In this document: positions 913 to 29,405 of the stretch, piece after piece | Layout: each line of letters begins with the position of its first letter | Position numbering within the stretch: position 1 is the first letter of the stretch | Assembly: GCF_053078305.1 (NCBI RefSeq) | Contig: NZ_CP166879.1 | Strand: one strand, 5' to 3' | Length of the DNA: 64,000 nucleotides | Program-made: the position numbers and the translations under genes | Notes under the pieces: generated by a model | Database searches by the model: none | What the model was told of the DNA's origin: nothing | What the model saw: only the letters and a program-made list of their open reading frames with translations

Positions 913-1677
913 ATGAATAACTCCCCCCGCTACCCGCAGCGCGTTCGCAATGATCTGCGCTTCCGTGAACTGACTGTGTTACGCGTTGAGCGCATCAGCG
1001 CCGGTTTTCAGCGCATTGTCCTCGGCGGCGAGGCGCTGGACGGTTTTACATCGCGCGGCTTTGACGATCACAGCAAACTCTTCTTTCCTCAACCTGACGC
1101 TCACTTTGTGCCGCCAACGGTAACGGAAGAGGGCATCGTCTGGCCGGAAGGACCACGCCCACCGTCGCGTGACTATACGCCACTGTATGACGAACTACGC
1201 CATGAACTGGCGATTGATTTCTTTATTCACGAAGACGGCGTCGCCAGTAGCTGGGCAATGCAGGCCCAACCGGGCGATAAACTCACGGTGGCAGGTCCGC
1301 GCGGTTCGCTGGTGGTGCCGGAAGATTACGCGTATCAGCTGTATGTCTGCGATGAATCCGGAATGCCCGCACTGCGCCGCCGCCTGGAAACGTTGAGCAA
1401 ACTTGCCGTTAAACCGCAAGTTAGTGCGCTGGTTAGCGTGCGGGATAACGCCTGTCAGGATTATCTCGCGCACCTTGATGGTTTTAATATCGAATGGCTG
1501 GCACATGATGAGCAGGCGGTAGATGCGCGTCTGGCGCAGATGCAAATCCCTGCCGATGATTACTTCATCTGGATAACCGGCGAAGGTAAAGTCGTTAAGA
1601 ATTTAAGCCGCCGCTTTGAAGCGGAACAGTATGACCCACAGCGGGTACGTGCAGCGGCTTACTGGCACGCAAAGTAA
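913..1677 (+). CDS. yqjH: NADPH-dependent ferric-chelate (siderophore) reductase YqjH/NfeF
   Basis: 254-aa ORF recognised as the E. coli siderophore-interacting FAD-binding protein. Position next to yqjI fits. Confidence 0.93.
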   Translation: MNNSPRYPQRVRNDLRFRELTVLRVERISAGFQRIVLGGEALDGFTSRGFDDHSKLFFPQPDAHFVPPTVTEEGIVWPEGPRPPSRDYTPLYDELRHELAIDFFIHEDGVASSWAMQAQPGDKLTVAGPRGSLVVPEDYAYQLYVCDESGMPALRRRLETLSKLAVKPQVSALVSVRDNACQDYLAHLDGFNIEWLAHDEQAVDARLAQMQIPADDYFIWITGEGKVVKNLSRRFEAEQYDPQRVRAAAYWHAK

Positions 1678-1723: not shown

Positions 1724-1730
1724 CTATATC

Positions 1731-1750
1731 TGGCCCTGCTGTCTTTGAAC
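1731..1750. repeat. Degenerate copy of the ileX 3' end (candidate attL remnant)
   Basis: tggccctgctgtctttgaac versus the tRNA 3' end tggcccctgctggacttgaac (10535-10555). By eye there is one indel and about three substitutions. Confidence 0.5.
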
Positions 1751-1803
1751 TGAATGCATATTTTGTTGATAAATAAAGATTATGTGTTTTTGATTTTCGT
1801 TTT

Positions 1804-1827
1804 GTATGCCTTTTTGTATGCCTTTTT
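1804..1827. repeat. 24-bp arm-type repeat (2 x GTATGCCTTTTT), left copy
   Basis: gtatgcctttttgtatgccttttt is identical to 10389-10412. Each copy lies tens of bp inside a putative island junction. Confidence 0.7.
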
Positions 1828-1985
1828 TGAAAAAGATACCCTTGTTGTTTGATCGTCGATAACGGGTATCAATGTGCACATGCAAATCGATGGCGTTTAT
1901 GTGTGCGCTGTCGAACGTTTGAAAATGGTTTTAGGGCGGTTTTAATGCTGGTTGATGTGGCGCTCTGTGGCGCTCGTTTTGGTGT

Positions 1986-2066
1986 GCTGGTGGCGGGGGT
2001 CGAACCCGCATACATGATCAGCCTGTACAGGCTGGCACCGACTCTACCCGTTGAGCGTACACCAGC
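1986..2066 (-). ncRNA. tRNA-like RNA 1 (canonical acceptor, D and T arms; aberrant anticodon arm; no encoded CCA)
   Basis: Minus strand has a 7-bp acceptor GCTGGTG/CACCAGC, U8-A9, and D arm GCTC-AACGGGTA-GAGT. T arm is GCGGG-TTCGACC-CCCGC. The central arm is the palindrome CAGCC-TGTACA-GGCTG (6-nt loop) flanked by extra nucleotides. Confidence 0.45.
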
Positions 2067-2086
2067 AAAAAAGCGATGAGGTTGTT

Positions 2087-2185
2087 GGCTGCTGGTGGTG
2101 GGGGTCGAACCCACATAAACATCCCGCTTTCTGGAAGCTATACAAGCGGACGCCGCTTTACCGATTAAGAGTACACCATACAGCC
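2087..2185 (-). ncRNA. tRNA-like RNA 2 (diverged paralogue of RNA 1 with extended acceptor-like helix)
   Basis: T arm GTGGG-TTCGACC-CCCAC. Terminal helix GGCTG..TGGTG / CACCA..CAGCC. UA plus a GG-containing D-like loop. Long central hairpin TCCGCTT...AAGCGGG. The 5' end coincides with the start predicted from the promoter at 2193-2221. Confidence 0.4.
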
Positions 2186-2192
2186 AGGTAAA

Positions 2193-2221
2193 ATAGTAAT
2201 CATGCGTTATGTGCGGGTAAA
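2193..2221 (-). promoter_or_regulatory. Candidate sigma70 promoter for the tRNA-like RNAs
   Basis: On the minus strand, TTTACC (2221-2216), a 17-nt spacer, then TACTAT (2198-2193). The predicted start near 2185-2186 is the first base of tRNA-like RNA 2. The weak -35 suggests activator dependence. Confidence 0.4.
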
Positions 2222-2260
2222 GTCTGTTTCGTCTGGTAGCACCAGATGAACGGGTATCAT

Positions 2261-2330
2261 TATTTCACCTGATTTCACGTGATTTCGCTTAATTTCACAA
2301 AAATCACCTTCTTTCACCTTCTTTCACAAA
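2261..2330. repeat. Seven helically phased TTTCAC (minus strand GTGAAA) repeats, about 10-bp period
   Basis: Seven consecutive decamers: tatttcacct, gatttcacgt, gatttcgctt, aatttcacaa, aaatcacctt, ctttcacctt, ctttcacaaa. They lie between the Mor-like gene and the promoter at 2193-2221. Confidence 0.7.
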
Positions 2331-2461
2331 AAACAAATCATCATTAAAGCGCCTGATTCGCTCTCTGATGCGTTTTGGTGTTTTTGTGGCGTCCGTGATG
2401 CCCTGAAAGGGGATTTTTGCGATAGCGGCGCAAATATAACGGTTGCTGCTGGTATCTGTGG

Positions 2462-2869
2462 TTAGTCTTGCGTGATTTTATTGGCGTGCTTCTTTCTCAG
2501 TCGTCGTATGATGTCGTAAATATGGGTTTCGGATATTGCGTACTCTTTGCGTAATGCCTGCAATTTTTCGCCGTTATCCCACCTGTAGTAAATCTCGTAT
2601 TCGCGCAATGCTGCGAAAAGTGATCTGCCTGTTGGAAGGTAAAGACTTCGCCCACCAGCATAGAAGGCGATTGCAGCGACAACCCGCTTTGCGATTCTGA
2701 AAGCGTCTGCCTCCTCCATGCCATTACGGGTAAGTTCCGCTACTGAATGCGACACGATATCAGCAAGCGAATCACACCATGCATCACCTGGTTTATCTCC
2801 GTTGTCTATGGCGTCGATGAATTTAAGCCGCTCGATGTCTTTTGGTACGTGATGGGTTTGCTCGTTCAT
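2462..2869 (-). CDS. Mor-family (phage Mu middle-operon-regulator-like) transcriptional activator
   Basis: 135-aa ORF. The C-terminal part (...YLPTGRSLFAALREYEIYYRWDNGEKLQALRKEYAISETHIYDIIRRLRKK) resembles the Mor/C HTH region from memory. Confidence 0.6.
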   Translation of the reverse strand: MNEQTHHVPKDIERLKFIDAIDNGDKPGDAWCDSLADIVSHSVAELTRNGMEEADAFRIAKRVVAAIAFYAGGRSLYLPTGRSLFAALREYEIYYRWDNGEKLQALRKEYAISETHIYDIIRRLRKKHANKITQD

Positions 2870-2982
2870 CCGGTAGCCTCTTGCGTTGGTGTATCTGGTC
2901 CTACCAGTTTAATTTAACGTCGCAATAAAACGATATACACGCACACAATCAGAAAAGCCGTCTGACTGTTCCGGTCCCGTGC

Positions 2983-3255
2983 TTACTTCTGGTAGCTACG
3001 CCAGATTTTTTTACATCTCCCTCCTATCCCCATTTCTGCGTAAGTGCGGTTTACTGCTTTCCTCAGGTCTGCGTAGTTCTCCTCTGGCGGCTCCGGTGGC
3101 CTCTGTGCCTTCCCGTAACATTCTGCCCTGCGCATTGCCACCCGTTCGCGTTCCCTGTCAGTCTCCACCAGCATCATCACTTCAGCCCATCGCGCCGCCG
3201 CTCTCCGGTAAAAGCCCTTCGCCTCCAGCTCTTCCGCTATGCTGTCATGTACCAT
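2983..3255 (-). CDS. Small PerC/Pch-like (or ANR-like) transcriptional regulator
   Basis: 90-aa ORF with motif LEAKGFYRRAAARWAEVM, which I associate with PerC/Pch-family activators. GAGGGG Shine-Dalgarno upstream. Confidence 0.45.
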   Translation of the reverse strand: MVHDSIAEELEAKGFYRRAAARWAEVMMLVETDRERERVAMRRAECYGKAQRPPEPPEENYADLRKAVNRTYAEMGIGGRCKKIWRSYQK

Positions 3256-3265
3256 CGTTCACCCC

Positions 3266-3676
3266 TCAGAACGGAATATTGTCACCGTAAGGGTCATCGC
3301 CTCCCACTGGTGGCTGATTACCCTGTGTGCCTGTGGTCCTGCGTCTGTTGCCACCTGGTCGCGCCGTTTTCGCACTGATTACGCTGTCTGCAATGACCTG
3401 ATAACCCTGCCGCGTTTCCCCGTTCTGTCCGGTCCACTGACTGACCTGCATCACACCGGATACGCTGATTACGTTGCCTTTCTCATGTCCTGCCAGTTGG
3501 TCGGCCTGTTTGCCAAATGCCAGGACAGACAGCCATAACGTTGCCTGCCCGTCCTGCGCCTGACTGCATGGCAGCGATACCGCCATACGTGCCAGCGTCA
3601 TCGGTGTGCCCTTACTGGTCTGTTTTGTCTGCGGGTCGTCAATCAGTCGCCCGTAAGCTGCTATCTGCGCTGTCAT
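3266..3676 (-). CDS. Single-stranded DNA-binding protein (island-encoded SSB)
   Basis: 136-aa ORF with an OB-fold-like N-terminal part, a Gly/Pro-rich linker and a C-terminal acidic tip ending DDPYGDNIPF (compare the SSB DDDIPF tail). Confidence 0.8.
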   Translation of the reverse strand: MTAQIAAYGRLIDDPQTKQTSKGTPMTLARMAVSLPCSQAQDGQATLWLSVLAFGKQADQLAGHEKGNVISVSGVMQVSQWTGQNGETRQGYQVIADSVISAKTARPGGNRRRTTGTQGNQPPVGGDDPYGDNIPF

Positions 3677-3777
3677 GATTCCACCTCTCCGGTTTTAACG
3701 TTGATGGTTGTTACCTGTTCCGCTTCTGCAATCTCCCGCTCTGTCAGCGTGGTAAAGTTTGCCGCTGCTGTGCTCAT
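3673..3777 (-). CDS. Possible 34-aa micro-ORF translationally coupled to ssb
   Basis: MSTAAANFTTLTEREIAEAEQVTTINVKTGEVES. Its TGA overlaps the ssb ATG (ATGA). No clear Shine-Dalgarno. Too short for the ORF track. Confidence 0.2.
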   Translation of the reverse strand: MSTAAANFTTLTEREIAEAEQVTTINVKTGEVES

Positions 3778-3916
3778 GAATGCACTTATCAGCCAGGGGG
3801 CTTTCGCGTGTCTTTCTGCCGTGTTGTGGCCCTTCGTTCATGAGCAAAACACTTAAATAAAACTAAAGTGATTTTCTGTGTTTTCGTGCTGCTCTGCTCT
3901 GTGTTTTTTTGCCGTT

Positions 3917-4120
3917 TACTCACCACTACTCACTTTTTTTACTCACTTTTTGGAATCGCTCACTTCGTCTCACCTGAGATTTTTGGTGTTTTTATGTGTG
4001 TGTTTTATAAGTGGTTTTTTACTACTCACTTTTTTGCCTATATACAGGTGAGAAAGTGAGTAATTTTGTTAATTTTTTGTAAAATTACTCACTTTACTCA
4101 CTTTTGCTCCTCACTTTTTT
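3917..4120. repeat. Iteron array, putative island replication origin
   Basis: At least 8 direct copies of (T)ACTCACTTT(T), for example at 3927, 3940, 4023, 4086, 4095 and 4109. Inverted copies (gtgagaaagtgagta) lie at 4048-4062. AT-rich spacers. The array abuts the stop codon of the RepA-like gene. Confidence 0.7.
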
Positions 4121-5516
4121 ACAGCGGTACTACGTCATCGCCGTCAATGCGTATAGTCTCGTCTTTCTCCAGTTTTGCTAACCATCGCCGCATGTTTTTC
4201 ACGTCATACCCAAGCCGTTTCATGTCGTCGCGCAACAACGAAATAGTGCACTTGTCGCCGTGCTGTGTGCGTGACCGGATGCAGCCCCATAGCGCGGTAT
4301 GGTTTTCCGTCTTGTTGCCAGCCTCCTCGATGCGCTCCACTTCAACGGGATGACGCGGCTTATCCACCACAACCAGAGACGTGATTAACTCCCCGTCAGC
4401 GTCGGTAAAAAGCTCAACTACCCGCAAATCGTAGGCAGCTTCTTTGAGTTCCTCTGCGTCCTTCATTTTGGTACATGAGATAACCAGCGCTTCGCTTCCT
4501 GCGTCCTCCCTGCGTATCCGGTATTCAGCATCCAGTGATGCACGAAATGCACTGGAACCACGCGCCCCCTTTGTTTCATCCTTGCCGGAATGGTGAACCA
4601 CCAGCACCGTTGCCCCTGTGCGCCGTTTCAGTTCGTCACACCCACGGATAAACGCCCCCATATCACGGGAATCATTTTCATCATTGCCACCAAAGCAACG
4701 CGCCAGCGTATCCAGAATAATCATGCGTACAGGTTTACCCGTTTCCCGTTCCACCTGGCGGGCAGCGATAACCATTTCATCAACATCAAGCGGGGCAGCC
4801 GGAAAGATGGGGCGGTTTACCAGATACAGATTTTTCACCTGCTCACCGTGCACAACCTCCCAGGCTTTTACACGACGCGGAACGCCGATACCGCCTTCAC
4901 CAACCACATAGAGAACAGCGCCATGCGCCACCCTGCGGCCTCCCCACTGGCGGCCCGTGGAAACGTGACACGCCCACGAACCCGCAAGGAACGATTTATA
5001 GGAACCGCTCGCCCCGTATATGCTGCACAGCGATACCGCCGGAATAATCCCCTTAACCACGTAATCCAGTTGCGTGTCATATCCGGCAGAACCAACGCTC
5101 ATCGGTAGCTTTGTTTTGCGCTGGTGGCCTTTTTCTTCCTGCTTTTCCCCGCGCTCCCGTTCCAGATATTCGCGCCAGTTCTCCCGCTTCTGGCTGTGCA
5201 TCCCATCGGGGTAGTAATTCGCATCCTGTACGCCTGCCGCTGCCAGTTTTTGCGCGATGGCATTAATATTTGATGGTCTGATATGGCTTGCTTTGTACAG
5301 CCGGACGCAATAGCGCCCCTCGTCAATGATTTTCGTGTCTGCCAGTTCTGCCAGTTGCTGCTCCCCAAGCCATACAGGTGGCACATTATCGCCAGCAAGT
5401 CGGCCCTCCTGCTCCTGCCACTGCTTCGCGTGTGCCCAGGCATCACTACCCACAAAAATAATGACCTCGGTCATTTTGTCGTAAGGCTGTTTTTTTAAGT
5501 TCGGTGCGCTTTTCAT
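4119..5516 (-). CDS. RepA-like RecA-fold replicative helicase/initiator (AAA_25-type)
   Basis: 465-aa ORF. Walker A-like GASGSYKS, Walker B MIILD, VLVVHHSGKD motif typical of RSF1010 RepA-like ATPases. Its start overlaps the upstream ORF stop (ATGA). Iterons lie immediately downstream. Confidence 0.7.
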   Translation of the reverse strand: MKSAPNLKKQPYDKMTEVIIFVGSDAWAHAKQWQEQEGRLAGDNVPPVWLGEQQLAELADTKIIDEGRYCVRLYKASHIRPSNINAIAQKLAAAGVQDANYYPDGMHSQKRENWREYLERERGEKQEEKGHQRKTKLPMSVGSAGYDTQLDYVVKGIIPAVSLCSIYGASGSYKSFLAGSWACHVSTGRQWGGRRVAHGAVLYVVGEGGIGVPRRVKAWEVVHGEQVKNLYLVNRPIFPAAPLDVDEMVIAARQVERETGKPVRMIILDTLARCFGGNDENDSRDMGAFIRGCDELKRRTGATVLVVHHSGKDETKGARGSSAFRASLDAEYRIRREDAGSEALVISCTKMKDAEELKEAAYDLRVVELFTDADGELITSLVVVDKPRHPVEVERIEEAGNKTENHTALWGCIRSRTQHGDKCTISLLRDDMKRLGYDVKNMRRWLAKLEKDETIRIDGDDVVPL

Positions 5517-5812
5517 TTCTTACCCCTGAATGCGTTAATCATCTTTTTCATCTTCTGTATTTTTGCCAGTGCCTTTACGTTGCTGGTGGGCACGTTACGC
5601 GGTACCGCCTGCACCAGAGAAAAATCACGGGAAAACTGATAAACAGGCATCACGCAGTCATATTCGTAGCCTTTACGGCGGTAGGTGACGCACCGCCCCG
5701 CCACGCCCTTAATCATTACCGTGCCGCCGTACTGGTCGCGGTAAATATCACCGCGCTTAAATTCAGGGCGAGGCTTGCCGCTGGCAGTTAAGCCAGTTTT
5801 TTTCATGTTCAT
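5513..5812 (-). CDS. Small basic protein, function unknown (possibly DUF4222-like)
   Basis: 99-aa ORF whose stop overlaps the replicase ATG, so it is operonic with the replicase. Confidence 0.5.
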   Translation of the reverse strand: MNMKKTGLTASGKPRPEFKRGDIYRDQYGGTVMIKGVAGRCVTYRRKGYEYDCVMPVYQFSRDFSLVQAVPRNVPTSNVKALAKIQKMKKMINAFRGKK

Positions 5813-5885
5813 TTTTTTATCCTTTGTTCTGGTCAGTTACGCCGTTGCTGCATAAATGCGGTTAGCGGTGCCTGTCGTTGCCTTA

Positions 5886-6200
5886 TCACGAATGGCGATA
5901 ATCAGCACTGATATCTCCGTTACGACAACGCCAGTTGTACACCTCCACAACCTCACTGAATCCGGCCACAAGTTCAGCCGTAACAGCGATGGAATCGCCC
6001 AGGCTGCGCAGTTCGTCCATGTCAGGATCAATGCTGTCACTCATGCCAGAAAGTAAGCGCCCTGTGATAGCCAGCCCTTCAAGCAGTTTGCGGGCGTAGA
6101 AATCAGCATCATCAAACATCGCTCTCGCTTCCCGTGCGTCAGCTGCTTTTATGGTTGTAACCAGTTGTTCAAGTATTCTGGTGTTACACACATCACGCAT
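5886..6200 (-). CDS. Hypothetical acidic protein translationally coupled to icd-like 1
   Basis: 104-aa ORF. Its ATG lies 5 nt before the icd-1 stop (ATGCGTGA, 6200-6193), the same geometry as P1 icd-ant coupling. Confidence 0.5.
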   Translation of the reverse strand: MRDVCNTRILEQLVTTIKAADAREARAMFDDADFYARKLLEGLAITGRLLSGMSDSIDPDMDELRSLGDSIAVTAELVAGFSEVVEVYNWRCRNGDISADYRHS

Positions 6201-6363
6201 GACTCACCCCCTCACGAATAAGGGTGACAAAAATCAGATGGGTGTGCGGAAGTTGTGCGCGTGCTTCGTGCTCAGTGGCAGCGGTAACGGTGAATATTGC
6301 AATGCTGCCTGTCAGGCACTGCATAAAGCGCCAGACAAAGTAAGGGCGTGCGGATACAGCCAT
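6193..6363 (-). CDS. Icd-like (host cell-division-inhibitor-like) small protein, copy 1
   Basis: 56 aa MAVSARPYFVWRFMQC...TVTAATEHEARAQLPHTHLIFV.... AGGAG lies 8 nt upstream of the ATG at 6363. The ORF track shows an in-frame 164-aa extension that I interpret mainly as RNA. Confidence 0.65.
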   Translation of the reverse strand: MAVSARPYFVWRFMQCLTGSIAIFTVTAATEHEARAQLPHTHLIFVTLIREGVSHA

Positions 6364-6371
6364 GTGAAAGG

Positions 6372-6586
6372 CTCCTATGTTTGAGGTAAGGAGTCTCGCT
6401 ACTACGCTGCTAAACATGGTGGCGAGACGTAACAGGGTTAGCAGACTGGCAACATAGAAACCAGCGAGCGCAAAGGCTCCCCCGTTACGCCCCGCCATAA
6501 TGCGGGTATGGGTAGGTTTACGGACACAAAAAAACCGCATATCGGAATGTAAGCGGCTGTCCGCTATGTTATTCAGGCTGCTAAAC
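6372..6586 (-). ncRNA. c4-like antisense RNA cassette 1 (targets, antisense core, SD-overlapping target)
   Basis: Plus-strand text: targets ctatgtt at 6564-6570 and 6375-6381, and ctgctaa at 6578-6584 and 6407-6413. Antisense aacatag at 6451-6457 and ttagcag at 6438-6444. Exact reverse complements. The distal target overlaps the icd-1 SD. Confidence 0.6.
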
Positions 6587-6649
6587 CCGGTCGCCATGTG
6601 GGTGACTCCGGCATCATACAGCCCGAAAGAAGAGGCGATCAACATGTTT

Positions 6650-6820
6650 TTATCCATGTGATGCCTCCTGACGGATACGGGCGACAAAAATCAGATGTGC
6701 GTGCGGCAGCCGGGCGCGTGCTTCGTGCTCAGTGGCAGCGGTAACGGTGAATACATCGATGTTACTGTGGTGGCACTGCATAAAGCGCCAGACAAAGTAA
6801 GGGCGTGCGAATACAGCCAT
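6650..6820 (-). CDS. Icd-like small protein, copy 2
   Basis: 56 aa MAVFARPYFVWRFMQCHHSNIDVFTVTAATEHEARARLPHAHLIFV.... AGGAG lies 8 nt upstream of the ATG at 6820. Confidence 0.65.
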   Translation of the reverse strand: MAVFARPYFVWRFMQCHHSNIDVFTVTAATEHEARARLPHAHLIFVARIRQEASHG

Positions 6821-6828
6821 GTGAAAGG

Positions 6829-7043
6829 CTCCTGTAGTGAAATTAAGGAGTCTCGCTACTACGCTGTCAAACATGGTGGCGAGACGTAACAGGGTTGACA
6901 GACTGGCACTACAGGAACCAGCGAGCGCAAAGGCTCCCCCGTTACGCCCCGCCATAATGCGGGTATGGGTAGGCTTACGGACACAAAAAAACCGCATATC
7001 GGAATGTAAGCGGCTGTCCGCTGTAGTATTCAGGCTGTCAAAC
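6829..7043 (-). ncRNA. c4-like antisense RNA cassette 2
   Basis: Targets ctgtagt at 7021-7027 and 6832-6838, and ctgtcaa at 7035-7041 and 6864-6870. Antisense actacag at 6908-6914 and ttgacag at 6895-6901. The backbone is nearly identical to cassette 1. Confidence 0.6.
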
Positions 7044-7106
7044 CCGGTCGCCATGTGGACGACTCCGGCATCATACAGCCCGAAAGAAGAGGCGATCAAC
7101 ATGTTT

Positions 7107-7295
7107 TTAAGCATGACTCACCCCCTGACGAATACGGGCGGCGAATACAGCGACACAACCGGACGGGCAACGGTTACGCGCTTCGCGTTCCGTCCAGGCG
7201 GTTACGTGGATGATTTGACGTTCTGACGTGCCAAAGGTGATAAAGCGCCAGATAAAGGCGGTTTGAGAATGTACGAGGGCAGGGGTAGTAGCCAT
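7107..7295 (-). CDS. Icd-like small protein, copy 3 (diverged)
   Basis: 62 aa MATTPALVHSQTAFIWRFITFGTSERQIIHVTAWTEREARNRCPSGCVAVFAARIRQGVSHA. AAGGAGG lies 8 nt upstream of the ATG at 7295. Confidence 0.6.
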   Translation of the reverse strand: MATTPALVHSQTAFIWRFITFGTSERQIIHVTAWTEREARNRCPSGCVAVFAARIRQGVSHA

Positions 7296-7303
7296 GATGG
7301 CAG

Positions 7304-7514
7304 CCTCCTTTATCGTTGGGATATACCCACCGCTGGAGGTTCCAATCTCGCTGGCGGTGGACTGCACGGAGTTGGAACTACTGGCGATAAAGGAAACCAG
7401 CCTGACCGAAGTCAGCCCCATACAGCCCACCATTGATAAGGTGTGCGTGTGCGCCGATACAAAAAAAGACGCGTTCGGCGTCTGTATCGCCTTTATCTCC
7501 AGCGGGGTTCCAAT
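7304..7514 (-). ncRNA. c4-like antisense RNA cassette 3 (diverged backbone, same architecture)
   Basis: Targets cctttatc at 7490-7497 and 7307-7314, and gttccaa at 7507-7513 and 7339-7345. Antisense gataaagg at 7386-7393 and ttggaac at 7372-7378. Strong hairpin GACGC-CGAAC-GCGTC plus U7 at 7461-7482. Confidence 0.55.
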
Positions 7515-7825
7515 CCCGACACCCGTTTTATGAGGTGCGCGGGAATCATAGCCATTTTTGATACTGGCGATCAACTGATTTTCTCTGGCGGGTATTTGGC
7601 GCGGATGCCTGTTACCTGTGGCAATATACACACGACTGTATACAATACACATCGGTTAACTCCTTATATTCCGTTGATGGCCCGTAGTGTTATTGCATTG
7701 CGGGTATTTTTTACCTGCCGTTAATTGAATGCGGCAAGGCATCACGACGGTTAACCCGTTTTGCATAACGTGAGGCGTTTTATTTTCTGCGCTGGTGGCT
7801 TTTATATTTCACATATGGGAATTTA

Positions 7826-8029
7826 TTATTCCTGCTGATAACGCTCCTCTACTTTCTTCTCAAGCCATGATTTCACCTCATCCTCAAACCAGCCAACGCG
7901 GCGTAATCCACGCTTAAAACCAGGAATAAATTCACCAGCCTTAACCATTGTGTCAATGCTCGTTGTACTAAGGCGAAGAAGATTTGCGACTTCTCGTTTT
8001 GTAAGGATTTTCTTTTCTGTAATGTTCAT
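7826..8029 (-). CDS. AlpA-family phage/island HTH regulator (excision/transcription control)
   Basis: 67-aa ORF. ...LTKREVANLLRLSTTSIDTMVKAGEFIPGFKRGLRRVGWFEDEVKSWL... matches the AlpA/Phage_AlpA pattern from memory. Confidence 0.8.
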   Translation of the reverse strand: MNITEKKILTKREVANLLRLSTTSIDTMVKAGEFIPGFKRGLRRVGWFEDEVKSWLEKKVEERYQQE

Positions 8030-8121
8030 ACTTTGCGTTCCTTTTGTTTCAGGCGCTAACTTGCCTAAACTTGTTCAAGGATATGCAAACACGGTAAAAG
8101 CTGGCATTGCGGAATATTACG

Positions 8122-8145
8122 AAAAAAGCCCGTAATATTACGGGC
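8122..8145 (-). terminator. Rho-independent terminator after the int-orf298 unit
   Basis: On the minus strand, GCCCGTAATATTACGGGC followed by TTTTTT, about 20 bp after the orf298 stop. Confidence 0.7.
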
Positions 8146-8166
8146 GGTCATATGTTCAGAAGTCTG

Positions 8167-9063
8167 TCAGTCGTCAACGTCTGCAAGCCACTTACCTATG
8201 CATGTTGGTGTGGCACCGATATCAACGCCTGCTTTGGTTAGTGCGCGGCTTAACTTGCTGTGACCGTTTTCAAGCGCCCTTCGTGGGTTTGACGCCTCTT
8301 CTTCTCCGGCTATAGCGGTGATTAGTCTTTTGATAACTCTGGCCTGAAGATTGGTTGTTTTCTTTGATGGGGGTGGTTTATTGATGTTTAATTCATCCAT
8401 GTTTTCAATAGAAGCGGTACGCCCTCCGTTTATGGCTAAATCTATCTCACTTCTGGAAATAAAAATATCGTTACGTGATATATCCCATCCCTGTAATAAA
8501 ATCGCAGCTTTAAAATCATCCTCGTCATCGTTATCGATTATCTGAATGTATTTAGTATTTGTTGTATCGTGAAATGATAATCTTTCAATGTCTGCGCTGT
8601 TAGCCTTTACATTAAGCAATCCATCAGCTTTAACATATATTTCTTTTGCGGGTGTTATTATTTGTGCGTTTTTTATCTCTGGCTCATCTTCAGCAAAAAT
8701 ATTCATGCTGAAATAATCACCATATGATGAGTAATGATAGTTTATGTTGAGTCCTGCATGTGCATAATAAAAAACATCTATTGGAGTGAGTAGCTTATTT
8801 ATAGATGTGGCATCAATGATTACATTGCAATATTCATTTGTGTAATGCTGGTATAATGTTTTATTAGCACTGATAAGCTCAGGCTTTACCCCTTCATAAT
8901 ACTTTAATGTCAGTTTTTCATTTATATTAATGCGATACAAAAAACGCATCCTCCTCGTAGCGATGAAATGAAGCAAATCATCAACGTCACACTCAAGCCT
9001 TCTGGCTGCCTTGTCTAACGGGTAATAATCCCTTTCAGGAAGGTTTATTTTTTTGTTTGCCAT
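8167..9063 (-). CDS. AT-rich orphan protein of unknown function (island cargo)
   Basis: 298-aa ORF starting 4 nt after the integrase stop. Its central part is visibly more AT-rich than neighbouring genes. I recognise no motif. Confidence 0.6.
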   Translation of the reverse strand: MANKKINLPERDYYPLDKAARRLECDVDDLLHFIATRRMRFLYRININEKLTLKYYEGVKPELISANKTLYQHYTNEYCNVIIDATSINKLLTPIDVFYYAHAGLNINYHYSSYGDYFSMNIFAEDEPEIKNAQIITPAKEIYVKADGLLNVKANSADIERLSFHDTTNTKYIQIIDNDDEDDFKAAILLQGWDISRNDIFISRSEIDLAINGGRTASIENMDELNINKPPPSKKTTNLQARVIKRLITAIAGEEEASNPRRALENGHSKLSRALTKAGVDIGATPTCIGKWLADVDD

Positions 9064-9067
9064 GCCC

Positions 9068-10348
9068 TTAACCGTTAACCATTTTTAACCCACGATAGCC
9101 ACCCGTGGCGCTTACGCTCCCGCTGGCAGCTGCCTCTACAAAATCCCCCCACCACGCCATTAACGGGCGTCGCTGCTCGAGATAGGTTGAGCGGTTGTAC
9201 GCACGGCGAACCTCGTTTTTATCTATGTGTGACAATGCCGCCTCGATTACGTCAGAGTCAAAACCTTGCTCGTTAAGTGCGGTACTTGCTATTGAGCGCA
9301 AGCCATGAGCAACCAGCCGCCCACTAAAACCCATGCGTTTTATTGCTGCGTTTGCTGTTTGTACGCACATATGGCGCTGCGGGTCGCTGTTGTGTGGAAA
9401 TATAAACTCACGATGCCCGCTTATTGGCTTCATGACGTCCAGAATGGCTAACGCCTGCTTCGAGAGTGGTATTACGTGTTCCCTGCGTTGTTTAAGTCTG
9501 TGCTCTGGTATGCGCCATTCCTTCACCTCAAAATCAATTTCACACCAGCGCGCGCCAGCTGCTTCACCTGGTCGGCAAATTGTCAGTAGCTGCCACTCAA
9601 TGACCAGCCGCGTTTGTCGTTCCACCCGTGCCGTTGCCAGCTTCTGCATAAATTCGGGGAGTTCTTCAGGGCGTATTGCTGGCATGTTCTTAACGCTTGG
9701 CGCGTTAAATGCCTTGCTTATCTCTGATGCCGGATTCGCGGCAATCATTCCGGTATTAACGGCGTAATACATGACCTCATTGATTCGCTGTGCTGTCCTT
9801 CTGACGGTATCTAATTTCCCCTGGGCGGCTAATGGTTTTAATGCTTCGATGAAATTGCTTGCTATCAGGTCTGCTATTGGCCTGTTACCGACTGACGGGA
9901 ATACATTACGCTCCAGCGAACGCCATATATCGCGTAGTGTATCTTCTGCGAGTCCTTGCCCTTTTTTAAGTTCAAACCAGAGCGTAGCTACATGCCTGAA
10001 GGTGTTCTCTCTCTTCATCACTTCACTAAGGCGCTGTTTCTCTCTGTGCTCTTTTGGGTCAATGCCACCAGAAAGAAGCGCTCTGTATTCGTCTTTTATC
10101 TTTCGCGCGCCCGCAATGCTGATTTCTGGATATGCGCCAATGCTTAACATGGCCCGTTTTTTTGTGTGTGGCTTGTAGTAGCGGTAACGCCACAAGCAAG
10201 AGGCGCTTTTGTGCTTAATCACCAGTTCCAGCCCTTCGCCGTCAGTGATGAAAAGGTCCTTTTTTTCGTTGCTGGCTTTTCGCTGGAGGCTTTTTATCGT
10301 TGCGGGTGATAAAGACTTAACTTTTTTGGTCACCGGTTCAACTCCCAT
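9068..10348 (-). CDS. P4-type tyrosine integrase (DUF4102 N-terminal arm-binding domain plus catalytic domain)
   Basis: 426-aa ORF. Catalytic-type motifs ICRPGEAAGARW, HGLRSIAST and LSHIDKNEVRRAYNRSTY (R...HxxR...H...Y). Lies next to a tRNA gene. Confidence 0.9.
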   Translation of the reverse strand: MGVEPVTKKVKSLSPATIKSLQRKASNEKKDLFITDGEGLELVIKHKSASCLWRYRYYKPHTKKRAMLSIGAYPEISIAGARKIKDEYRALLSGGIDPKEHREKQRLSEVMKRENTFRHVATLWFELKKGQGLAEDTLRDIWRSLERNVFPSVGNRPIADLIASNFIEALKPLAAQGKLDTVRRTAQRINEVMYYAVNTGMIAANPASEISKAFNAPSVKNMPAIRPEELPEFMQKLATARVERQTRLVIEWQLLTICRPGEAAGARWCEIDFEVKEWRIPEHRLKQRREHVIPLSKQALAILDVMKPISGHREFIFPHNSDPQRHMCVQTANAAIKRMGFSGRLVAHGLRSIASTALNEQGFDSDVIEAALSHIDKNEVRRAYNRSTYLEQRRPLMAWWGDFVEAAASGSVSATGGYRGLKMVNG

Positions 10349-10388
10349 AAGCTGTTAAAGGCATATGCAAATCTGTGTTTTTTCCGGC

Positions 10389-10412
10389 GTATGCCTTTTT
10401 GTATGCCTTTTT
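10389..10412. repeat. 24-bp arm-type repeat, right copy
   Basis: gtatgcctttttgtatgccttttt is identical to 1804-1827 and lies 41 bp upstream of the integrase start codon. Confidence 0.7.
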
Positions 10413-10435
10413 AATCTTGCTTATACGCTATCAAA

Positions 10436-10450
10436 CTGGCCCAAACTGAA
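10436..10450. repeat. Candidate right junction motif ctggccc-a-aactgaa
   Basis: Shares both heptamers with 1730-1754 (ctggccc-11 nt-aactgaa). Confidence 0.35.
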
Positions 10451-10454
10451 CAAT

Positions 10455-10492
10455 AAAAAACCCGCGTTCCTTGTCTGGCGCGGGTTTGCTTT
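10455..10492 (-). terminator. Rho-independent terminator downstream of ileX
   Basis: On the minus strand, AAACCCGCG-ccagacaaggaa-CGCGGGTTTTTT. Confidence 0.75.
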
Positions 10493-10531
10493 GTTTAACT
10501 TGCCGTAACTTGTCTTTACTTGGTGTCGATT

Positions 10532-10607
10532 TGGTGGCCCCTGCTGGACTTGAACCAGCGACCAAGCGATTATGAGTCGCCTGCTCTAACCACTGAGCTA
10601 AGGGGCC
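10532..10607 (-). tRNA. ileX: tRNA-Ile2 (anticodon CAU, lysidine-modified)
   Basis: 76-nt GGCCCCTTAGCTCAGTGGTTAGAGCAGGCGACTCATAATCGCTTGGTCGCTGGTTCAAGTCCAGCAGGGGCCACCA. Full cloverleaf, encoded CCA, located between mug and yqjH as in K-12. Confidence 0.93.
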
Positions 10608-26564: not shown

Positions 26565-29405
26565 ATGAAGCCGCTCTCTTCACCGTTACAGCAGTACTGG
26601 CAGACCGTTGTTGAGCGGCTGCCAGAGCCTTTAGCCGAGGAATCACTTAGCGCACAGGCGAAGTCAGTACTTACTTTCAGTGATTTTGTGCAGGACAGCG
26701 TGATTGCGCATCCAGAGTGGCTGACGGAACTGGAAAGCCAACCGCCGCAGGCCGACGAATGGCAGCATTACGCGGCATGGTTGCAGGAGGCGCTCAGTAA
26801 TGTGAGTGACGAAGCCGGGTTAATGCGCGAGCTGCGGCTGTTCCGTCGGCGCATCATGGTACGTATCGCCTGGGCGCAAACGCTGGCACTGGTTACTGAA
26901 GAGAGCATATTGCAGCAGCTCAGCTATCTGGCGGAGACGCTGATTGTTGCGGCGCGTGACTGGCTATATGACGCCTGCTGCCGCGAGTGGGGAACGCCGT
27001 GCAATGCGCAGGGCGAAGCGCAACCGCTGCTGATTTTAGGCATGGGTAAGCTGGGCGGCGGGGAACTGAATTTCTCCTCTGATATCGATCTGATTTTTGC
27101 CTGGCCGGAACATGGTTGTACGCAGGGGGGACGCCGGGAACTGGATAACGCGCAGTTTTTTACCCGCATGGGGCAGCGGCTGATTAAAGTGCTGGATCAA
27201 CCAACGCAGGATGGCTTCGTCTATCGCGTGGATATGCGGCTGCGTCCGTTTGGCGAAAGTGGCCCGCTGGTGCTGAGCTTTGCCGCGTTGGAAGATTATT
27301 ACCAGGAGCAGGGGCGCGACTGGGAGCGTTACGCGATGGTCAAGGCGCGTATTATGGGCGATAGCGACGGCGTCTATGCTAACGAGTTGCGTGCGATGCT
27401 GCGCCCGTTTGTTTTCCGTCGTTACATCGATTTCAGCGTGATTCAGTCGCTGCGCAACATGAAAGGGATGATTGCCCGTGAAGTGCGTCGACGTGGTTTG
27501 ACCGACAATATCAAACTCGGCGCAGGCGGCATTCGCGAAATTGAATTTATCGTTCAGGTGTTCCAGCTCATTCGCGGCGGGCGCGAACCGTCGCTGCAAT
27601 CGCGCTCTTTACTGCCAACGCTCAGCGCCATTGCCGAGCTGCATCTGCTTTCTGAAAACGATGCTGAACAATTGCGAGTGGCGTATCTGTTCCTGCGGCG
27701 TCTGGAAAACCTGCTGCAGAGCATTAACGACGAACAAACCCAGACGCTTCCTTCTGATGAGCTTAACCGTGCGCGGCTGGCGTGGGCGATGGACTTTGCT
27801 GACTGGCAGCAACTGACTGGGGCGCTGACCGGACATATGACCAATGTGCGCCGGGTGTTTAATGAATTGATTGGCGACGACGAAAGTGAAACTCAGGAAG
27901 AGTCGCTGTCGGAACAGTGGCGTGAGCTGTGGCAGGACGCGTTGCAGGAAGATGACACTACACCAGTGCTGGCGCATCTTAGCGAGGACGATCGCAAACA
28001 GGTGCTGACGCTGATTGCTGATTTCCGCAAAGAACTGGATAAGCGCACTATCGGGCCACGCGGGCGTCAGGTGCTCGACCATCTGATGCCGCATCTGCTA
28101 AGTGATGTCTGTGCGCGTGAAGACGCTGCCGTTACGCTGTCGCGCATTACCGCCTTGCTGGTGGGGATTGTTACCCGCACCACCTATTTAGAATTGCTCA
28201 GTGAATTCCCCGCGGCGCTTAAACATTTGATTTCTCTGTGTGCCGCGTCGCCGATGATTGCCAGCCAGCTGGCGCGTTATCCATTATTGCTGGATGAATT
28301 GCTCGATCCAAACACCCTTTACCAGCCGACGGCGACCGATGCCTACCGCGATGAGTTGCGCCAGTATTTGCTGCGCGTGCCGGAAGATGACGAAGAGCAA
28401 CAGCTTGAGGCGCTGCGTCAGTTCAAACAGGCGCAGCTGTTACGCATTGCGGCAGCGGATATCGCCGGTACGCTGCCGGTAATGAAAGTGAGCGATCACT
28501 TAACCTGGCTGGCGGAAGCCATGATTGACGCCGTTGTTCAGCAGGCGTGGGTTCAAATGGTTGCCCGCTACGGTAAGCCAAATCACCTGAACGATCGCGA
28601 AGGGCGTGGTTTTGCGGTGGTCGGCTACGGCAAGCTGGGCGGCTGGGAGTTAGGCTACAGTTCCGATCTTGACCTTATCTTCCTCCATGATTGCCCAATG
28701 GATGCGATGACTGACGGTGAGCGGGAAATCGACGGGCGGCAGTTTTATCTGCGTCTGGCGCAACGCATTATGCATCTGTTCAGTACGCGTACCTCTTCCG
28801 GCATTTTGTATGAAGTGGATGCTCGACTGCGTCCGTCCGGGGCGGCGGGAATGCTGGTGACATCCGCAGAAGCATTTGCCGATTATCAGAAAAACGAGGC
28901 CTGGACGTGGGAACATCAGGCGCTGGTGCGTGCACGTGTAGTGTACGGCGATCCGCAGCTCACCGCGCACTTTGACGCGGTGCGTCGTGAGATTATGGCG
29001 CTGCCGCGCGAAGGCAAAACCCTGCAAACAGAAGTGCGGGAAATGCGCGAGAAAATGCGCGCTCATCTCGGCAATAAACATCGCGATCGCTTTGATATCA
29101 AAGCCGATGAAGGCGGAATTACCGATATCGAATTTATTACCCAATATCTGGTGTTGCGCTACGCTCATGAAAAACCGAAGTTAACGCGCTGGTCAGACAA
29201 CGTGCGCATTCTGGAACTGCTGGCACAAAACGACATTATGGAAGAGCAGGAAGCGATGGCGCTGACCCGTGCTTACACGACGCTTCGCGATGAACTTCAT
29301 CATCTGGCATTACAGGAATTGCCGGGCCATGTGTCGGAGGATTGCTTCACCGCAGAGCGTGAACTGGTGCGGGCAAGCTGGCAGAAGTGGCTGGTGGAAG
29401 AATGA
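26565..29405 (+). CDS. glnE: Glutamine synthetase adenylyltransferase/adenylyl-removing enzyme
   Basis: 946 aa from [21 protein letters not shown].... The track ORF (26361) extends 68 codons upstream into ygiF. Confidence 0.95.

Follow-up and report, generated by a model that had tools for sequence, protein, structure and literature searches.

A compact island at ileX of Escherichia coli, with the makeup of a capsid-less PICI, carries sequence features that suggest a Mu-like helper phage

The window, a 64,000-nucleotide stretch of contig NZ_CP166879.1 (RefSeq assembly GCF_053078305.1), contains an island located between nfeF and ileX whose listed parts are all carried on the minus strand; direct repeats and the origin are given below without a strand. 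The original prediction had placed the island at 1730-10607. A discrete element does adjoin ileX, and its ends are sharpened here to 1742-10539.

1742-10539, minus strand: the element proper, 8,798 bp, running from TCTTTGAACTGAATGCAT... to ...CGATTTGGTGGCC, with identical ends in ileX and mdtP copies
1735-1741: distal copy of the 7-bp crossover repeat CCTGCTG, flanking the element
10540-10546: second copy of CCTGCTG, within ileX, forming the other flank
10532-10607, minus strand: ileX, tRNA-Ile(CAU), the last 8 nt of which (10532-10539) are element-derived
1804-1827: two tandem GTATGCCTTTTT repeats at the distal end, identical to the 24-mer at 10389-10412
10389-10412: two tandem GTATGCCTTTTT repeats in the int-proximal arm, identical to the 24-mer at 1804-1827

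The tandem GTATGCCTTTTT repeats at both ends are probably arm-type integrase sites. The chromosomal arm adjoining the distal CCTGCTG has a 4-nt deletion relative to the intact 3' end of ileX, and in other strains this spot has lost 1 nt or 3 nt; the deletion in the present copy might impair its excision.

The end of the island next to ileX holds the recombination module.

9068-10348, minus strand: int, a P4-type tyrosine integrase (Pfam Arm-DNA-bind_3, Phage_int_M and Phage_integrase; NCBIfam PRK09692, 528 bits)
8167-9063, minus strand: orf298, a 298-aa orphan with conserved N- and C-terminal parts and a hypervariable middle
8128-8145, minus strand: terminator-like hairpin that closes the int-orf298 unit
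8078-8124, minus strand: candidate helper-responsive alpA promoter, TTTCGTAATATTCCGCAATGCCAGC followed after 16 nt by TATCCT
7826-8029, minus strand: alpA, an AlpA-family regulator/excisionase (Phage_AlpA/HTH_17)

The orphan matched nothing in Pfam, PHROGs, PADLOC or NCBIfam; its conserved parts span residues of about 1-45 and 230-298, its GC content is 38%, and its structure model is poor (pLDDT 45). The alpA promoter candidate agrees at 20 of 26 positions with a motif common to the regions upstream of the lysis and protease genes of the Mu-like prophage, with 16 nt to the TAnnCT hexamer compared with 17 nt in the prophage motif. With a family-wise p of about 0.06, this match is only suggestive; position 28893 has an equally good chance match, and the island lineage at yicC-dinD lacks the alpA-promoter match.

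Downstream of alpA lie an RNA immunity module and a replicon.

6193-7580, minus strand: RNA module of three tandem 457-nt units, each with promoter-like sequence, leader, C4 RNA and ORF
7462-7538, minus strand: isrK (63.8 bits)
7350-7437, 6872-6959 and 6415-6502, minus strand: C4 RNAs (72-78 bits against a gathering score of 45)
5886-6200, minus strand: orf104, a 104-aa protein of unknown function conserved in all copies
5513-5812, minus strand: DUF4222 protein, whose gene overlaps the start of repA
4119-5516, minus strand: repA, a RepA-family (AAA_25) replicative helicase matching phrog_2850 end to end
3917-4114: replication origin immediately 3' of repA, in which eleven GTGAG(T)A iterons surround an AT-rich spacer
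3266-3676, minus strand: SSB (Pfam SSB, TIGR00621)
2983-3255, minus strand: PerC-family regulator of 90 aa (PHROG transcriptional activators; PF06069 on the same gene in related loci)

Each 457-nt unit consists of a promoter-like TTGATC-18-TATGAT, an isrK/a1b1-like leader, a C4 antisense RNA and an ash/Icd-like ORF, and the number of units varies, with three here and two in other strains, in which the element measures 8,327-8,445 bp. RepA has a primase-like N-terminal domain, and phage helicase-primases are among its relatives, at 33-41% identity. The predicted recombination module, RNA module, replicon and two small activators are all present, and the description as a compact self-replicating integrative element holds.

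The remaining end of the island, distal to ileX, holds the terminal module, the part that looks new.

2462-2869, minus strand: Mor/C-family transcription activator of 135 aa (phrog_532, late transcriptional activator; PF08765)
2249-2332, minus strand: candidate pac mimic, an array of five GTGAAA copies spaced about 10 bp apart and then TGATACCCGTT
2090-2184, minus strand: TL1, tRNA-like RNA gene (type B), with an upstream promoter-like TTTACC-17-TACTAT
1985-2066, minus strand: TL2, tRNA-like RNA gene (type A), assigned by Rfam tRNA (35 bits) and its fold
1861-1871, minus strand: second copy of TGATACCCGTT, containing TGATACC

The activator scores higher against Mu C (56 bits) than against Mu Mor (34 bits) and is 47% identical to the sole Mor-family protein encoded just upstream of the Mu-like prophage lysis genes; a tblastn search of 50,697 phage records with it returned Mu-like phages only. 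TL2 folds into acceptor, D and T arms, with a stem with a 4-nt loop in place of the anticodon arm, and is 86% identical to a gene in an O157 Mu-like prophage situated between the minor head and virion morphogenesis genes; compensatory base pairs occur in the tRNA-like genes. The TL1 counterpart occupies the same intergenic gap in another Mu-like prophage, and homologues of these RNA genes occur in E. coli Mu-like prophages only. PGAP annotates them as tRNA-Tyr and tRNA-OTHER in near-identical loci; ARAGORN called neither gene, and the Rfam tRNA model scored just one. The RNA cargo proposed for the island comprises these two genes in addition to C4 and isrK. [quoted passage not shown] The TGATACC of the second TGATACCCGTT copy is the core of the repeated TTTGATACC motif at Mu-like prophage ends.

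With at least 80% coverage, the island is present in 7 of 5,426 complete E. coli genomes, and comparison with an island-free ileX locus, as had been proposed, identified an empty site in K-12 MG1655, so the island does not belong to the E. coli core. Other strains carry copies inside mdtP that are close variants of the ileX island, with ends identical to those of the ileX copies and a 7-bp flanking repeat; the junction of one is undamaged. The element is thus a discrete unit bounded by integrase sites and inserted at ileX and, as a close variant, mdtP, and its rarity and shared ends bear out the idea of an accessory unit that moved whole. In total, the unit was found at three chromosomal sites with exact ends. 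Strain JNEC-KY203 holds two island copies that differ at 219 positions. In the assembly collection, 625 blocks list the island Mor protein and 790 list a 99%-identical variant. The island is not contained in any phage record, and the predicted attP junction was not found in viral and metagenome contig collections. Nearly all island genes compared are intact and under purifying selection: pN/pS was 0.03-0.28 in most comparisons among copies (int, about 0.25; repA, 0.06-0.07; ssb, 0.04-0.09; mor, 0-0.28) and up to 0.34 for diverged orf104 copies, and differences in alpA were all synonymous. Three replicase types occur in the same island frame, and copies that are otherwise similar have exchanged their replication module.

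No island ORF on either strand matched capsid, terminase, Sid/Psu or lysis families, in agreement with the predicted lack of structural, packaging and lysis genes. The further claim that the island differs from PICIs was not supported, as its backbone and layout match those of Gram-negative PICIs and cfPICIs. The Gram-negative PICI layout of int, alpA, rep with the origin directly 3' of it, and PerC is the one seen here, including the position of the origin (PMC6092414). From alpA to PerC, the backbone shares 81-88% DNA identity with E. coli islands that have a full cfPICI capsid and terminase module, and other islands of this identity run on into a ClpP-protease/capsid fusion gene. We take the island to be a mobile phage satellite that lacks a capsid and belongs to the known PICI kind. 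Among the nearest known systems are the Gram-negative PICIs without a recognizable capsid-morphogenesis or terminase gene (SatelliteFinder 'Type C'), such as EcCIMP1 of E. coli MP1, for which excision and transduction by a helper have been demonstrated (PMC11773190). Like these, the island combines a tRNA-adjacent integrase, AlpA, its own replicase and a PerC-family regulator with a lack of structural, lysis, recognizable capsid-remodelling or small-terminase genes. Unlike EcCIMP1 (20 kb), it spans about 8.8 kb and replicates with an AAA_25 RepA helicase accompanied by DUF4222 and SSB, and its candidate helper is Mu-like, whereas that of EcCIMP1 is the temperate phage Kapi1, which we take to be P22-like. 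The Mor/C-type activator, the two tRNA-like RNA genes and the GTGAAA array are absent from PICI descriptions in the cited literature. With the cfPICIs (prototype EcCIEDL933), the island shares the ash/Icd-DUF4222-RepA-SSB-PerC segment in the same gene order at the above identity, but it lacks their defining capsid, protease, portal, connector, HNH, TerS and TerL genes and has mor, the array and the tRNA-like genes in their place. The phage-inducible chromosomal minimalist islands (PICMI) of Vibrionaceae likewise have int, alpA and a replicase without capsid remodelling, and are packaged as a concatemer filling a full-sized helper head, as proposed below; they differ in host family, integration next to fis, primase families (DUF3987/DUF5906), virulent helpers and the lack of C4 RNA units, PerC and Mor.

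An extra match to a Mu-like protease gene occurs in 11 of 13 island genomes compared with about 216 of 5,413 others (about 4%), a comparison that ignores kinship, and several of the 13 are probably clonal. In two of these island genomes, direct inspection showed that the extra match belongs to a Mu-like prophage at another chromosomal position; two island genomes have no Mu-like prophage. Island and Mu-like prophage are both typical of bovine and Shiga-toxin-producing strains. Sp18, a Mu-like prophage of O157 Sakai, is reported not to be inducible by mitomycin C (PMC2669165), so mitomycin C induction may be uninformative for a Mu-like helper.

With roughly even confidence, we interpret the island as a small satellite of the Gram-negative PICI lineage whose helper would be a Mu-like transposable phage of a type that many Shiga-toxin-producing E. 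coli carry. By analogy with the PICI literature, AlpA would induce excision together with the downstream operon, the C4 RNAs would gate read-through into the replication genes, and the excised circle would be amplified by RepA, SSB and the iterons. The alpA promoter is possibly fired by the helper late activator, and the C-type activator of the island may reinforce this firing and turn on helper late genes, in the way that Delta of P4 acts on P2; P4 likewise has a satellite copy of the late activator of its helper (Delta versus Ogr) and of the helper packaging site. The GTGAAA array, as a copy of the prophage left-end segment, may be recognized by the helper packaging machinery, and a Mu-sized head would be filled by concatemers of about 4.5 island copies. 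Packaging from a plasmid-like concatemer has to be assumed in addition, since Mu normally packages copies that are integrated.

Considerably less probable is a PICI-type satellite or defence island with a different helper, in which the Mu-related parts sense or block Mu-like phages: the C homologue would compete at late promoters, the array would soak up packaging proteins, and the tRNA-like RNAs would pair with a Mu-like late transcript. The prophage tRNA-like gene is antisense within the late head-gene region, so the 86%-identical island copy would largely complement that transcript. Phage interference is common among satellites, the hypervariable orf298 resembles a conflict gene, and the backbone is closely related to that of cfPICIs, which according to published work use siphoviruses with HNH-type packaging as helpers. 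However, the island ends and origin share no sequence with any other phage record, neither the P2/P4 nor the lambda cos sequence was found in the island, PADLOC gave no match, and interference can coexist with hitch-hiking. We consider it improbable that the island is a decaying cfPICI or PICI, now devoid of the capsid and packaging module and spreading, immobile, only via the chromosome or generalized transduction. The shared cfPICI backbone, the micro-deletions adjoining the crossover in several copies, this one included, the missing attP junction and the yicC-dinD lineage, with a truncated ssb and, in one strain, a frameshifted perC, would fit such decay, but the exact ends at three sites, the undamaged mdtP junction and the purifying selection speak against it. 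So does the terminal module, which is retained in a lineage with a different integrase, alpA and replicase: it is not a deletion scar but a set of genes and sites conserved across lineages with differing integrases and replicases. Less probable again is an integrative mobilizable element that excises, has plasmid-like replication and is transferred by a conjugative plasmid or ICE via an unrecognized oriT; it would account for the replicon and integrase, RepA-family helicases occur on plasmids too, and a related PICI was deposited as a 10.8-kb circular 'plasmid', but the island has no match to relaxase, coupling protein or other conjugation-related families, its recognizable relatives are all phage satellites, and its terminal module is phage-related. 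A reduced P4-like satellite dependent on P2-like phages is very improbable despite the P4-type integrase, the AlpA/Vis-like protein, the ash and Icd-like ORFs and the C4-family immunity RNA processed from a leader, since, in agreement with the predicted difference from P4, the psu, delta, sid, epsilon and alpha families are unmatched, the P2/P4 cos sequence is absent with up to 3 mismatches, and the activator is of the Mor/C type of transposable phages, not the Ogr/Delta zinc-finger type.

To our knowledge, no satellite of Mu-like transposable phages has been described. Three sequence features, together with the co-occurrence, suggest that the island exploits such phages and, because the terminal module points there, Mu-like prophages offer a concrete candidate for the helper that the original prediction had left open.

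The interval between nfeF (913-1677, plus strand) and the tRNA gene ileX is occupied by a single block of co-oriented minus-strand genes. The original prediction had proposed defining the ends of this element against an island-free ileX locus, and this comparison was made with E. coli K-12 MG1655, in which ileX directly adjoins nfeF and the site is empty. Comparison with near-identical islands of other strains places the termini at TCTTTGAACTGAATGCAT (1742) and CGATTTGGTGGCC (10539). On either side of the element stands the 7-bp repeat CCTGCTG; the final 8 nt of the ileX tRNA belong to the element, and a doubled GTATGCCTTTTT repeat is located close to both of its ends. At least 80% of the island is covered by one place in just 7 of 5,426 complete E. 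coli genomes, which, together with the empty K-12 site, shows that it is not part of the E. coli core. In strains JNEC-KY203 and STEC17-183, the element lies inside mdtP with identical ends and is flanked by CGGGATG, the intact K-12 mdtP sequence at the insertion point. All copies are 8.3-8.8 kb in size. Across copies, int, alpA, repA, ssb, and mor have pN/pS values of 0.03-0.28, and the diverged copies of orf104 in a third lineage, located between yicC and dinD, reach 0.34. As the exact ends at ileX and mdtP and the low pN/pS values indicate, the integrase and attachment sites are not mere remnants.

JNEC-KY203 has the island at ileX as well as in mdtP, and the 219 positions that differ between its two copies indicate separate acquisitions and no recent duplication. 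The idea that the mdtP copy arose by secondary-site insertion of the ileX element was dropped, as the copies are 3% apart and the integrase has 22 non-synonymous differences; the mdtP copy is better viewed as a sister lineage whose site preference is possibly altered. After the ileX island of JNEC-KY203 (locus L011, 9830-11379), only the 3' half of the tRNA is found, followed by a second element with its own integrase, an arrangement suggestive of two tandem islands sharing a tRNA gene. Deletions of 1-4 nt recur just outside the 7-bp crossover repeat (window 1732-1741; relative loci L001, L011, L013, L008, and L012). In the chromosomal arm of the distal junction, the ileX copies have lost 4 nt here and in OkiPb01678 and 3 nt and 1 nt in two others, and one of the mdtP copies has lost 2 nt and the other none. 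Such micro-deletions might impair excision; they would fit scars of abortive excision or selection locking the island in. The predicted attP junction of the excised form (...GATTTGGTGGCC-N7-TCTTTGAACTGAATGC) was absent from the viral and metagenome contigs searched, and no excised or packaged form of the island was found in any collection searched.

The following genes were identified; the integrase, AlpA, ash/Icd-like, DUF4222, RepA, SSB, PerC, and Mor assignments come from domain searches.

10532-10607, minus strand: ileX, tRNA-Ile (CAU)
9068-10348, minus strand: P4-type tyrosine integrase (int)
8167-9063, minus strand: 298-aa orphan protein (orf298), directly after int
7826-8029, minus strand: AlpA (Phage_AlpA/HTH_17)
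Minus strand: ash/Icd-like ORFs
5886-6200, minus strand: 104-aa protein of unknown function (orf104)
5513-5812, minus strand: DUF4222 protein
4119-5516, minus strand: AAA_25 RepA-family helicase (repA)
3266-3676, minus strand: SSB
2983-3255, minus strand: PerC-family regulator
2462-2869, minus strand: Mor-family activator

Matches to Rfam comprised three C4 antisense RNAs at 72-78 bits (gathering score 45) and isrK at 64 bits, arranged in three tandem 457-nt units that each contain a promoter-like TTGATC-18-TATGAT sequence. Eleven copies of the iteron GTGAG(T)A were found at 3917-4114, directly 3' of repA. No ORF of the island on either strand matched capsid, terminase, Sid/Psu, or lysis families. 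The domain, Rfam, and repeat searches thus bear out the gene inventory of the original prediction, including its lack of structural, packaging, and lysis genes. Three tandem C4/isrK/Icd-like units are present here (window 6193-7580) compared with two in near-identical islands, and the three C4 RNAs are unlike each other in the target-pairing loop (UUUCCUUUAUCG, UUCCUGUAGUG, and UUUCUAUGUUG); since these loops differ, the island may combine several stacked immunity specificities through its C4 units.

The 298-aa orphan had no match in Pfam, PHROGs, PADLOC, or NCBIfam. Its N- and C-terminal parts are near-invariant and its middle is ~50% identical between alleles (window 8167-9063; family members P0006-P0014), and the alleles differ between islands that are otherwise 97-99% identical. 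With its conserved ends, hypervariable middle, and position immediately after int, it looks like a conflict or sensing protein. An AlphaFold model based on an alignment of 8 homologues had a pLDDT of 45, too poor for a fold search, and a search for defence cargo with PADLOC returned nothing for this protein or six other proteins.

The segment encoding the ash/Icd units, DUF4222, RepA, SSB, and PerC shares 81-88% DNA identity with islands at other chromosomal sites in E. coli. Two continuations beyond perC are seen among these related islands: a set of genes for major capsid, protease, portal, head closure, connector, HNH, TerS, and TerL, as in cfPICIs, or a gene for a ClpP-protease/capsid fusion of the kind known from classical E. 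coli PICIs. Gram-negative PICIs typically consist of int, the helper-induced activator alpA, and rep with an origin directly 3', often with PerC (PMC6092414), a layout likewise supported by the cfPICI preprint and PMC13612085. Judged by the PICI criteria of Fillol-Salom et al. 2018 (PMC6092414), the island has an integrase at one end with a specific attachment site (7-bp crossover repeat, arm repeats at both ends), alpA (7826-8029) replacing an Stl-type repressor, and its own replication initiator (repA, 4119-5516) with an iteron origin directly 3' (3917-4114); at 8.3-8.8 kb, its copies fall short of the size of around 15 kb. As to induction, specific packaging, and high-frequency transfer by a helper phage, the sequence gives indirect links to Mu-like prophages. 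The PICI model of SatelliteFinder has five core components, of which Type A/B require a capsid morphogenesis gene and a small terminase subunit, and elements with int, alpA, and a replicase only form 'Type C', set aside there as ambiguous (PMC10085698). The island lacks both the capsid morphogenesis gene and the small terminase subunit and, with int, alpA, and rep alone, would fall in Type C when the model criteria are applied by hand.

Precedents exist for elements of this kind. EcCIMP1, a Type C element, has no identifiable capsid or terminase gene, is excised in a helper-dependent manner, and is transduced by its helper (PMC11773190), and the PICMIs of vibrios are likewise minimal and packaged as concatemers (PMC10803314). 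Given Type C elements, EcCIMP1, and PICMIs, a lack of morphogenesis and packaging genes is no distinction from PICIs, and the earlier claim that the island differs from PICIs is not supported, given the 81-88% backbone identity, the PICI layout, and the capsid-less Type C precedents. On sequence grounds, the island is a small satellite of the PICI lineage, and a capsid-less PICI-type island as such belongs to a known kind. It differs from cfPICIs in missing all of their major capsid, protease, portal, head-tail adaptor/connector, HNH, TerS, and TerL genes. PICMIs carry int, alpA, and a DUF3987/DUF5906 primase and sit next to fis; the island shares int and alpA only, with an AAA_25 replicase and ileX as its site, although a sister copy does carry D5_N/DUF5906. 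A paper on helper-embedded PICIs was rejected as a parallel because its 'icd' is isocitrate dehydrogenase. A 10,790-bp circular sequence deposited as an E. coli plasmid (NZ_CP148328.1, locus L031) corresponds gene for gene to a classical PICI (int, AlpA, Icd-like, DUF4222, primase, and ClpP-protease/capsid fusion) and is presumably an excised circular PICI caught by assembly.

In all copies, perC is followed by the same terminal module, consisting of mor, an array of GTGAAA repeats (2249-2332), and tRNA-like genes, here TL1 (2090-2184) and TL2 (1985-2066). The module, at 93% identity, also ends the third lineage between yicC and dinD (six genomes). Outside E. coli, an island of similar plan at ssrA of Salmonella enterica subsp. 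diarizonae (locus L028, 8182-20200) contains int, an orf298 homologue, an HTH protein, isrK and C4, toprim and DUF927, AntA and Bro-N proteins, and a distant 190-aa Mor-family protein with GGAATC and GTATCACC repeat arrays downstream, and capsid genes are absent. Small Mor-bearing islands may extend beyond E. coli. Searches with Mor gave no relatives in one-genome-per-species contigs, a single distant Mu-like match in viral contigs, and four clusters, all from E. coli, in a word-indexed protein search. In an assembly collection, the exact Mor protein of the island occurs in 625 blocks and a 99%-identical variant in 790. The longest Mor-carrying contig is 5-10 kb in 182 of the 790 blocks with the variant, compared with 75 of the 625 with the island's own Mor, which would fit the island assembling alone as multi-copy or extrachromosomal DNA.

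Each part of the terminal module has a counterpart in Mu-like phages. The island Mor shares 47% identity with the only Mor-family protein of the O157:H7 Mu-like prophage (hereafter the prophage), which is encoded just upstream of the lysis genes, and in comparison with solved structures it scores 56 bits against the Mu late activator C and 34 bits against Mu Mor. A tblastn search of 50,697 phage records with the island Mor matched 19; all identifiable records are Mu-like phages or inserted Mu-like regions, in every record with an annotation of the gene, the match coincides with the late activator, and two of the 19 are unannotated faecal phage contigs. A 25-nt motif, with a TAnGCT hexamer 17 nt beyond it, is common to the regions upstream of the prophage lysis and protease genes. 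The region upstream of the island alpA matches this motif at 20 of 26 positions with a spacing of 16 nt (p ~0.06 after allowing for the number of comparisons), and the motif is not present in the yicC-dinD lineage. A second 20/26 match at 28868-28893, in ordinary chromosomal sequence, was taken as chance, and the motif evidence is therefore weak. A relaxed 10-mer for a candidate activator site was discarded as too degenerate.

The GTGAAA array resembles the left end of the prophage: island sequence TTTTTGTGAAAGAAGGTGAAA (2332-2312) and prophage left-end nt 35-55 (TTTTAGTGAAAGGAGGTGAAA) are identical at 19 of 21 positions, a score reached by none of 1000 dinucleotide shuffles. We take the Mu pac site to lie between the L1 and L2 transposase sites, at about nt 32-54 of the left end. 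In the island, five GTGAAA copies at roughly 10-bp spacing are followed by TGATACC, the core of the TTTGATACC repeats found at both prophage ends. The array is retained in all island lineages, and the prophage of an island-bearing strain has the same left end. Co-occurrence was assessed with a chimeric query of the island mor segment and a Mu-like protease gene, which gave extra matches in 11 of 13 island-bearing genomes, the protease gene being found in about 216 of 5,413 other genomes; these counts ignore phylogeny and ecology, both elements being typical of Shiga-toxin-producing and bovine strains, and some of the 13 are probably clonal. For two of the island genomes, direct inspection showed the extra match to be a Mu-like prophage at another chromosomal position.

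TL2 is 86% identical to an antisense gene between the minor head and virion morphogenesis genes of the prophage, and TL1 resembles a variant in the same gap of another Mu-like prophage. Phage records sharing the tRNA-like sequence are Mu-like insertions only, and, outside the tRNA-like gene, no phage record resembled the island ends or origin. All seven tRNA-like sequences retain the acceptor, D, and T stems, with 96% of cells paired compared with 34-62% for a slid partner and with five pairs changed on both sides, and a variable stem-loop occupies the position of the anticodon arm. By these predicted structures, TL1 and TL2 are tRNA-shaped RNAs, not decoding tRNAs. The family is common to the island (1985-2184) and E. 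coli Mu-like prophages (L005, the O157:H7 prophage locus, 8996-9075; L025, 2997-3084), and no Rfam family was found for it beyond a weak tRNA match. In the O157:H7 Z1826 Mu-like prophage (L005, 7799-8976), an IS3-family insertion separates the minor head gene from the tRNA-like gene; the OkiPb01714 prophage is without it.

The island has definite, integrase-set boundaries and a replicon of its own; it evolves under selection, is found at several sites, and ends in a conserved module. By analogy with work on PICIs, a helper signal would raise alpA expression, AlpA would bring about excision and expression of the downstream operon, C4 RNAs from the operon leader would restrict read-through in the resting state, and RepA, SSB, and the iterons would amplify the excised circle. 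The links described here suggest that the helper would be a Mu-like phage, whose late activator may act as the inducing signal; the island's C homologue would reinforce induction and may activate late genes in a resident prophage, as P4 Delta does for P2. The GTGAAA array would serve as a packaging signal for the helper machinery. Mu packages a length of about 39 kb, and a ~39-kb head would hold ~4.5 copies of the island, comparable to a PICMI with its helper. The tRNA-shaped RNAs could base-pair with the transcript of the helper head genes or have another role. We regard the Mu-like helper as a testable hypothesis, not as established.

Taken jointly, the C-type activator copy would switch on late genes of a resident Mu-like prophage, the left-end packaging-signal mimic would lead to headful packing of island concatemers, and the tRNA-shaped RNA pair, its variable arm copied from the helper, would modulate the helper head-gene transcript. 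We tentatively propose, with the balance of probability somewhat against it, that these islands represent the first recognised satellite family of Mu-like phages, derived from PICIs with swappable integrases and replicases and equipped with a C-type activator, a left-end pac mimic, and helper-modulating tRNA-shaped RNAs. Alternatively, these Mu-related parts could be a means of interfering with Mu-like phages, the island itself being carried by another phage.

The island could also be an immobile remnant, a view that gains some support from the junction micro-deletions and from damaged ssb and perC in one lineage. The yicC-dinD lineage has a different integrase, post-int protein, and alpA region and a toprim and DUF927 replicase, and in another mdtP copy a D5_N/DUF5906 primase replaces RepA, so that one replicase slot holds three unrelated types (AAA_25 RepA, toprim with DUF927, and D5_N/DUF5906; relative loci L006, L009, and L027 compared with window 4119-5516). 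Exchange of the replication module while the end module stays constant is expected of a working satellite family and not of debris. A conjugative transfer route by way of an oriT is possible; domain searches of the island matched no relaxase family. A relationship to P4 and P2 is unlikely, and identity as a P4 satellite was rejected: the psu-delta-sid operon, epsilon, and the alpha primase had no Pfam or PHROG match in the island, which shares int and alpA alone with P4; a P2-type cos query had no match in the island at up to 3 mismatches; and lambda cos gave chance-level matches only, every one outside the island. The original prediction that the element differs from P4 thus holds.

None of the Mor/C activator, the pair of tRNA-shaped RNAs, and the mimic of the left end was found in the satellite literature searched, and full-text searches covering part of the literature returned no description of a satellite of a transposable phage. 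Many islands are filed as 'Type C' PICI-like elements or defective prophages because no transfer route is visible; the present case shows that such a route can be inferred from a short terminal module whose activator, small RNAs, and candidate packaging signal mirror one phage family. Should the Mu-like link hold, satellite biology would reach transposable phages. Because replication in these phages proceeds by transposition and the DNA that they package is integrated, a satellite would need a new packaging solution. Because the island, found in Shiga-toxin-producing and bovine E. coli, carries a regulator of the PerC family, which is known to affect expression of LEE virulence genes, its mobility is relevant to how pathogens evolve. 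The family of tRNA-shaped RNAs common to phage and satellite is an unexplored class of phage small RNA.
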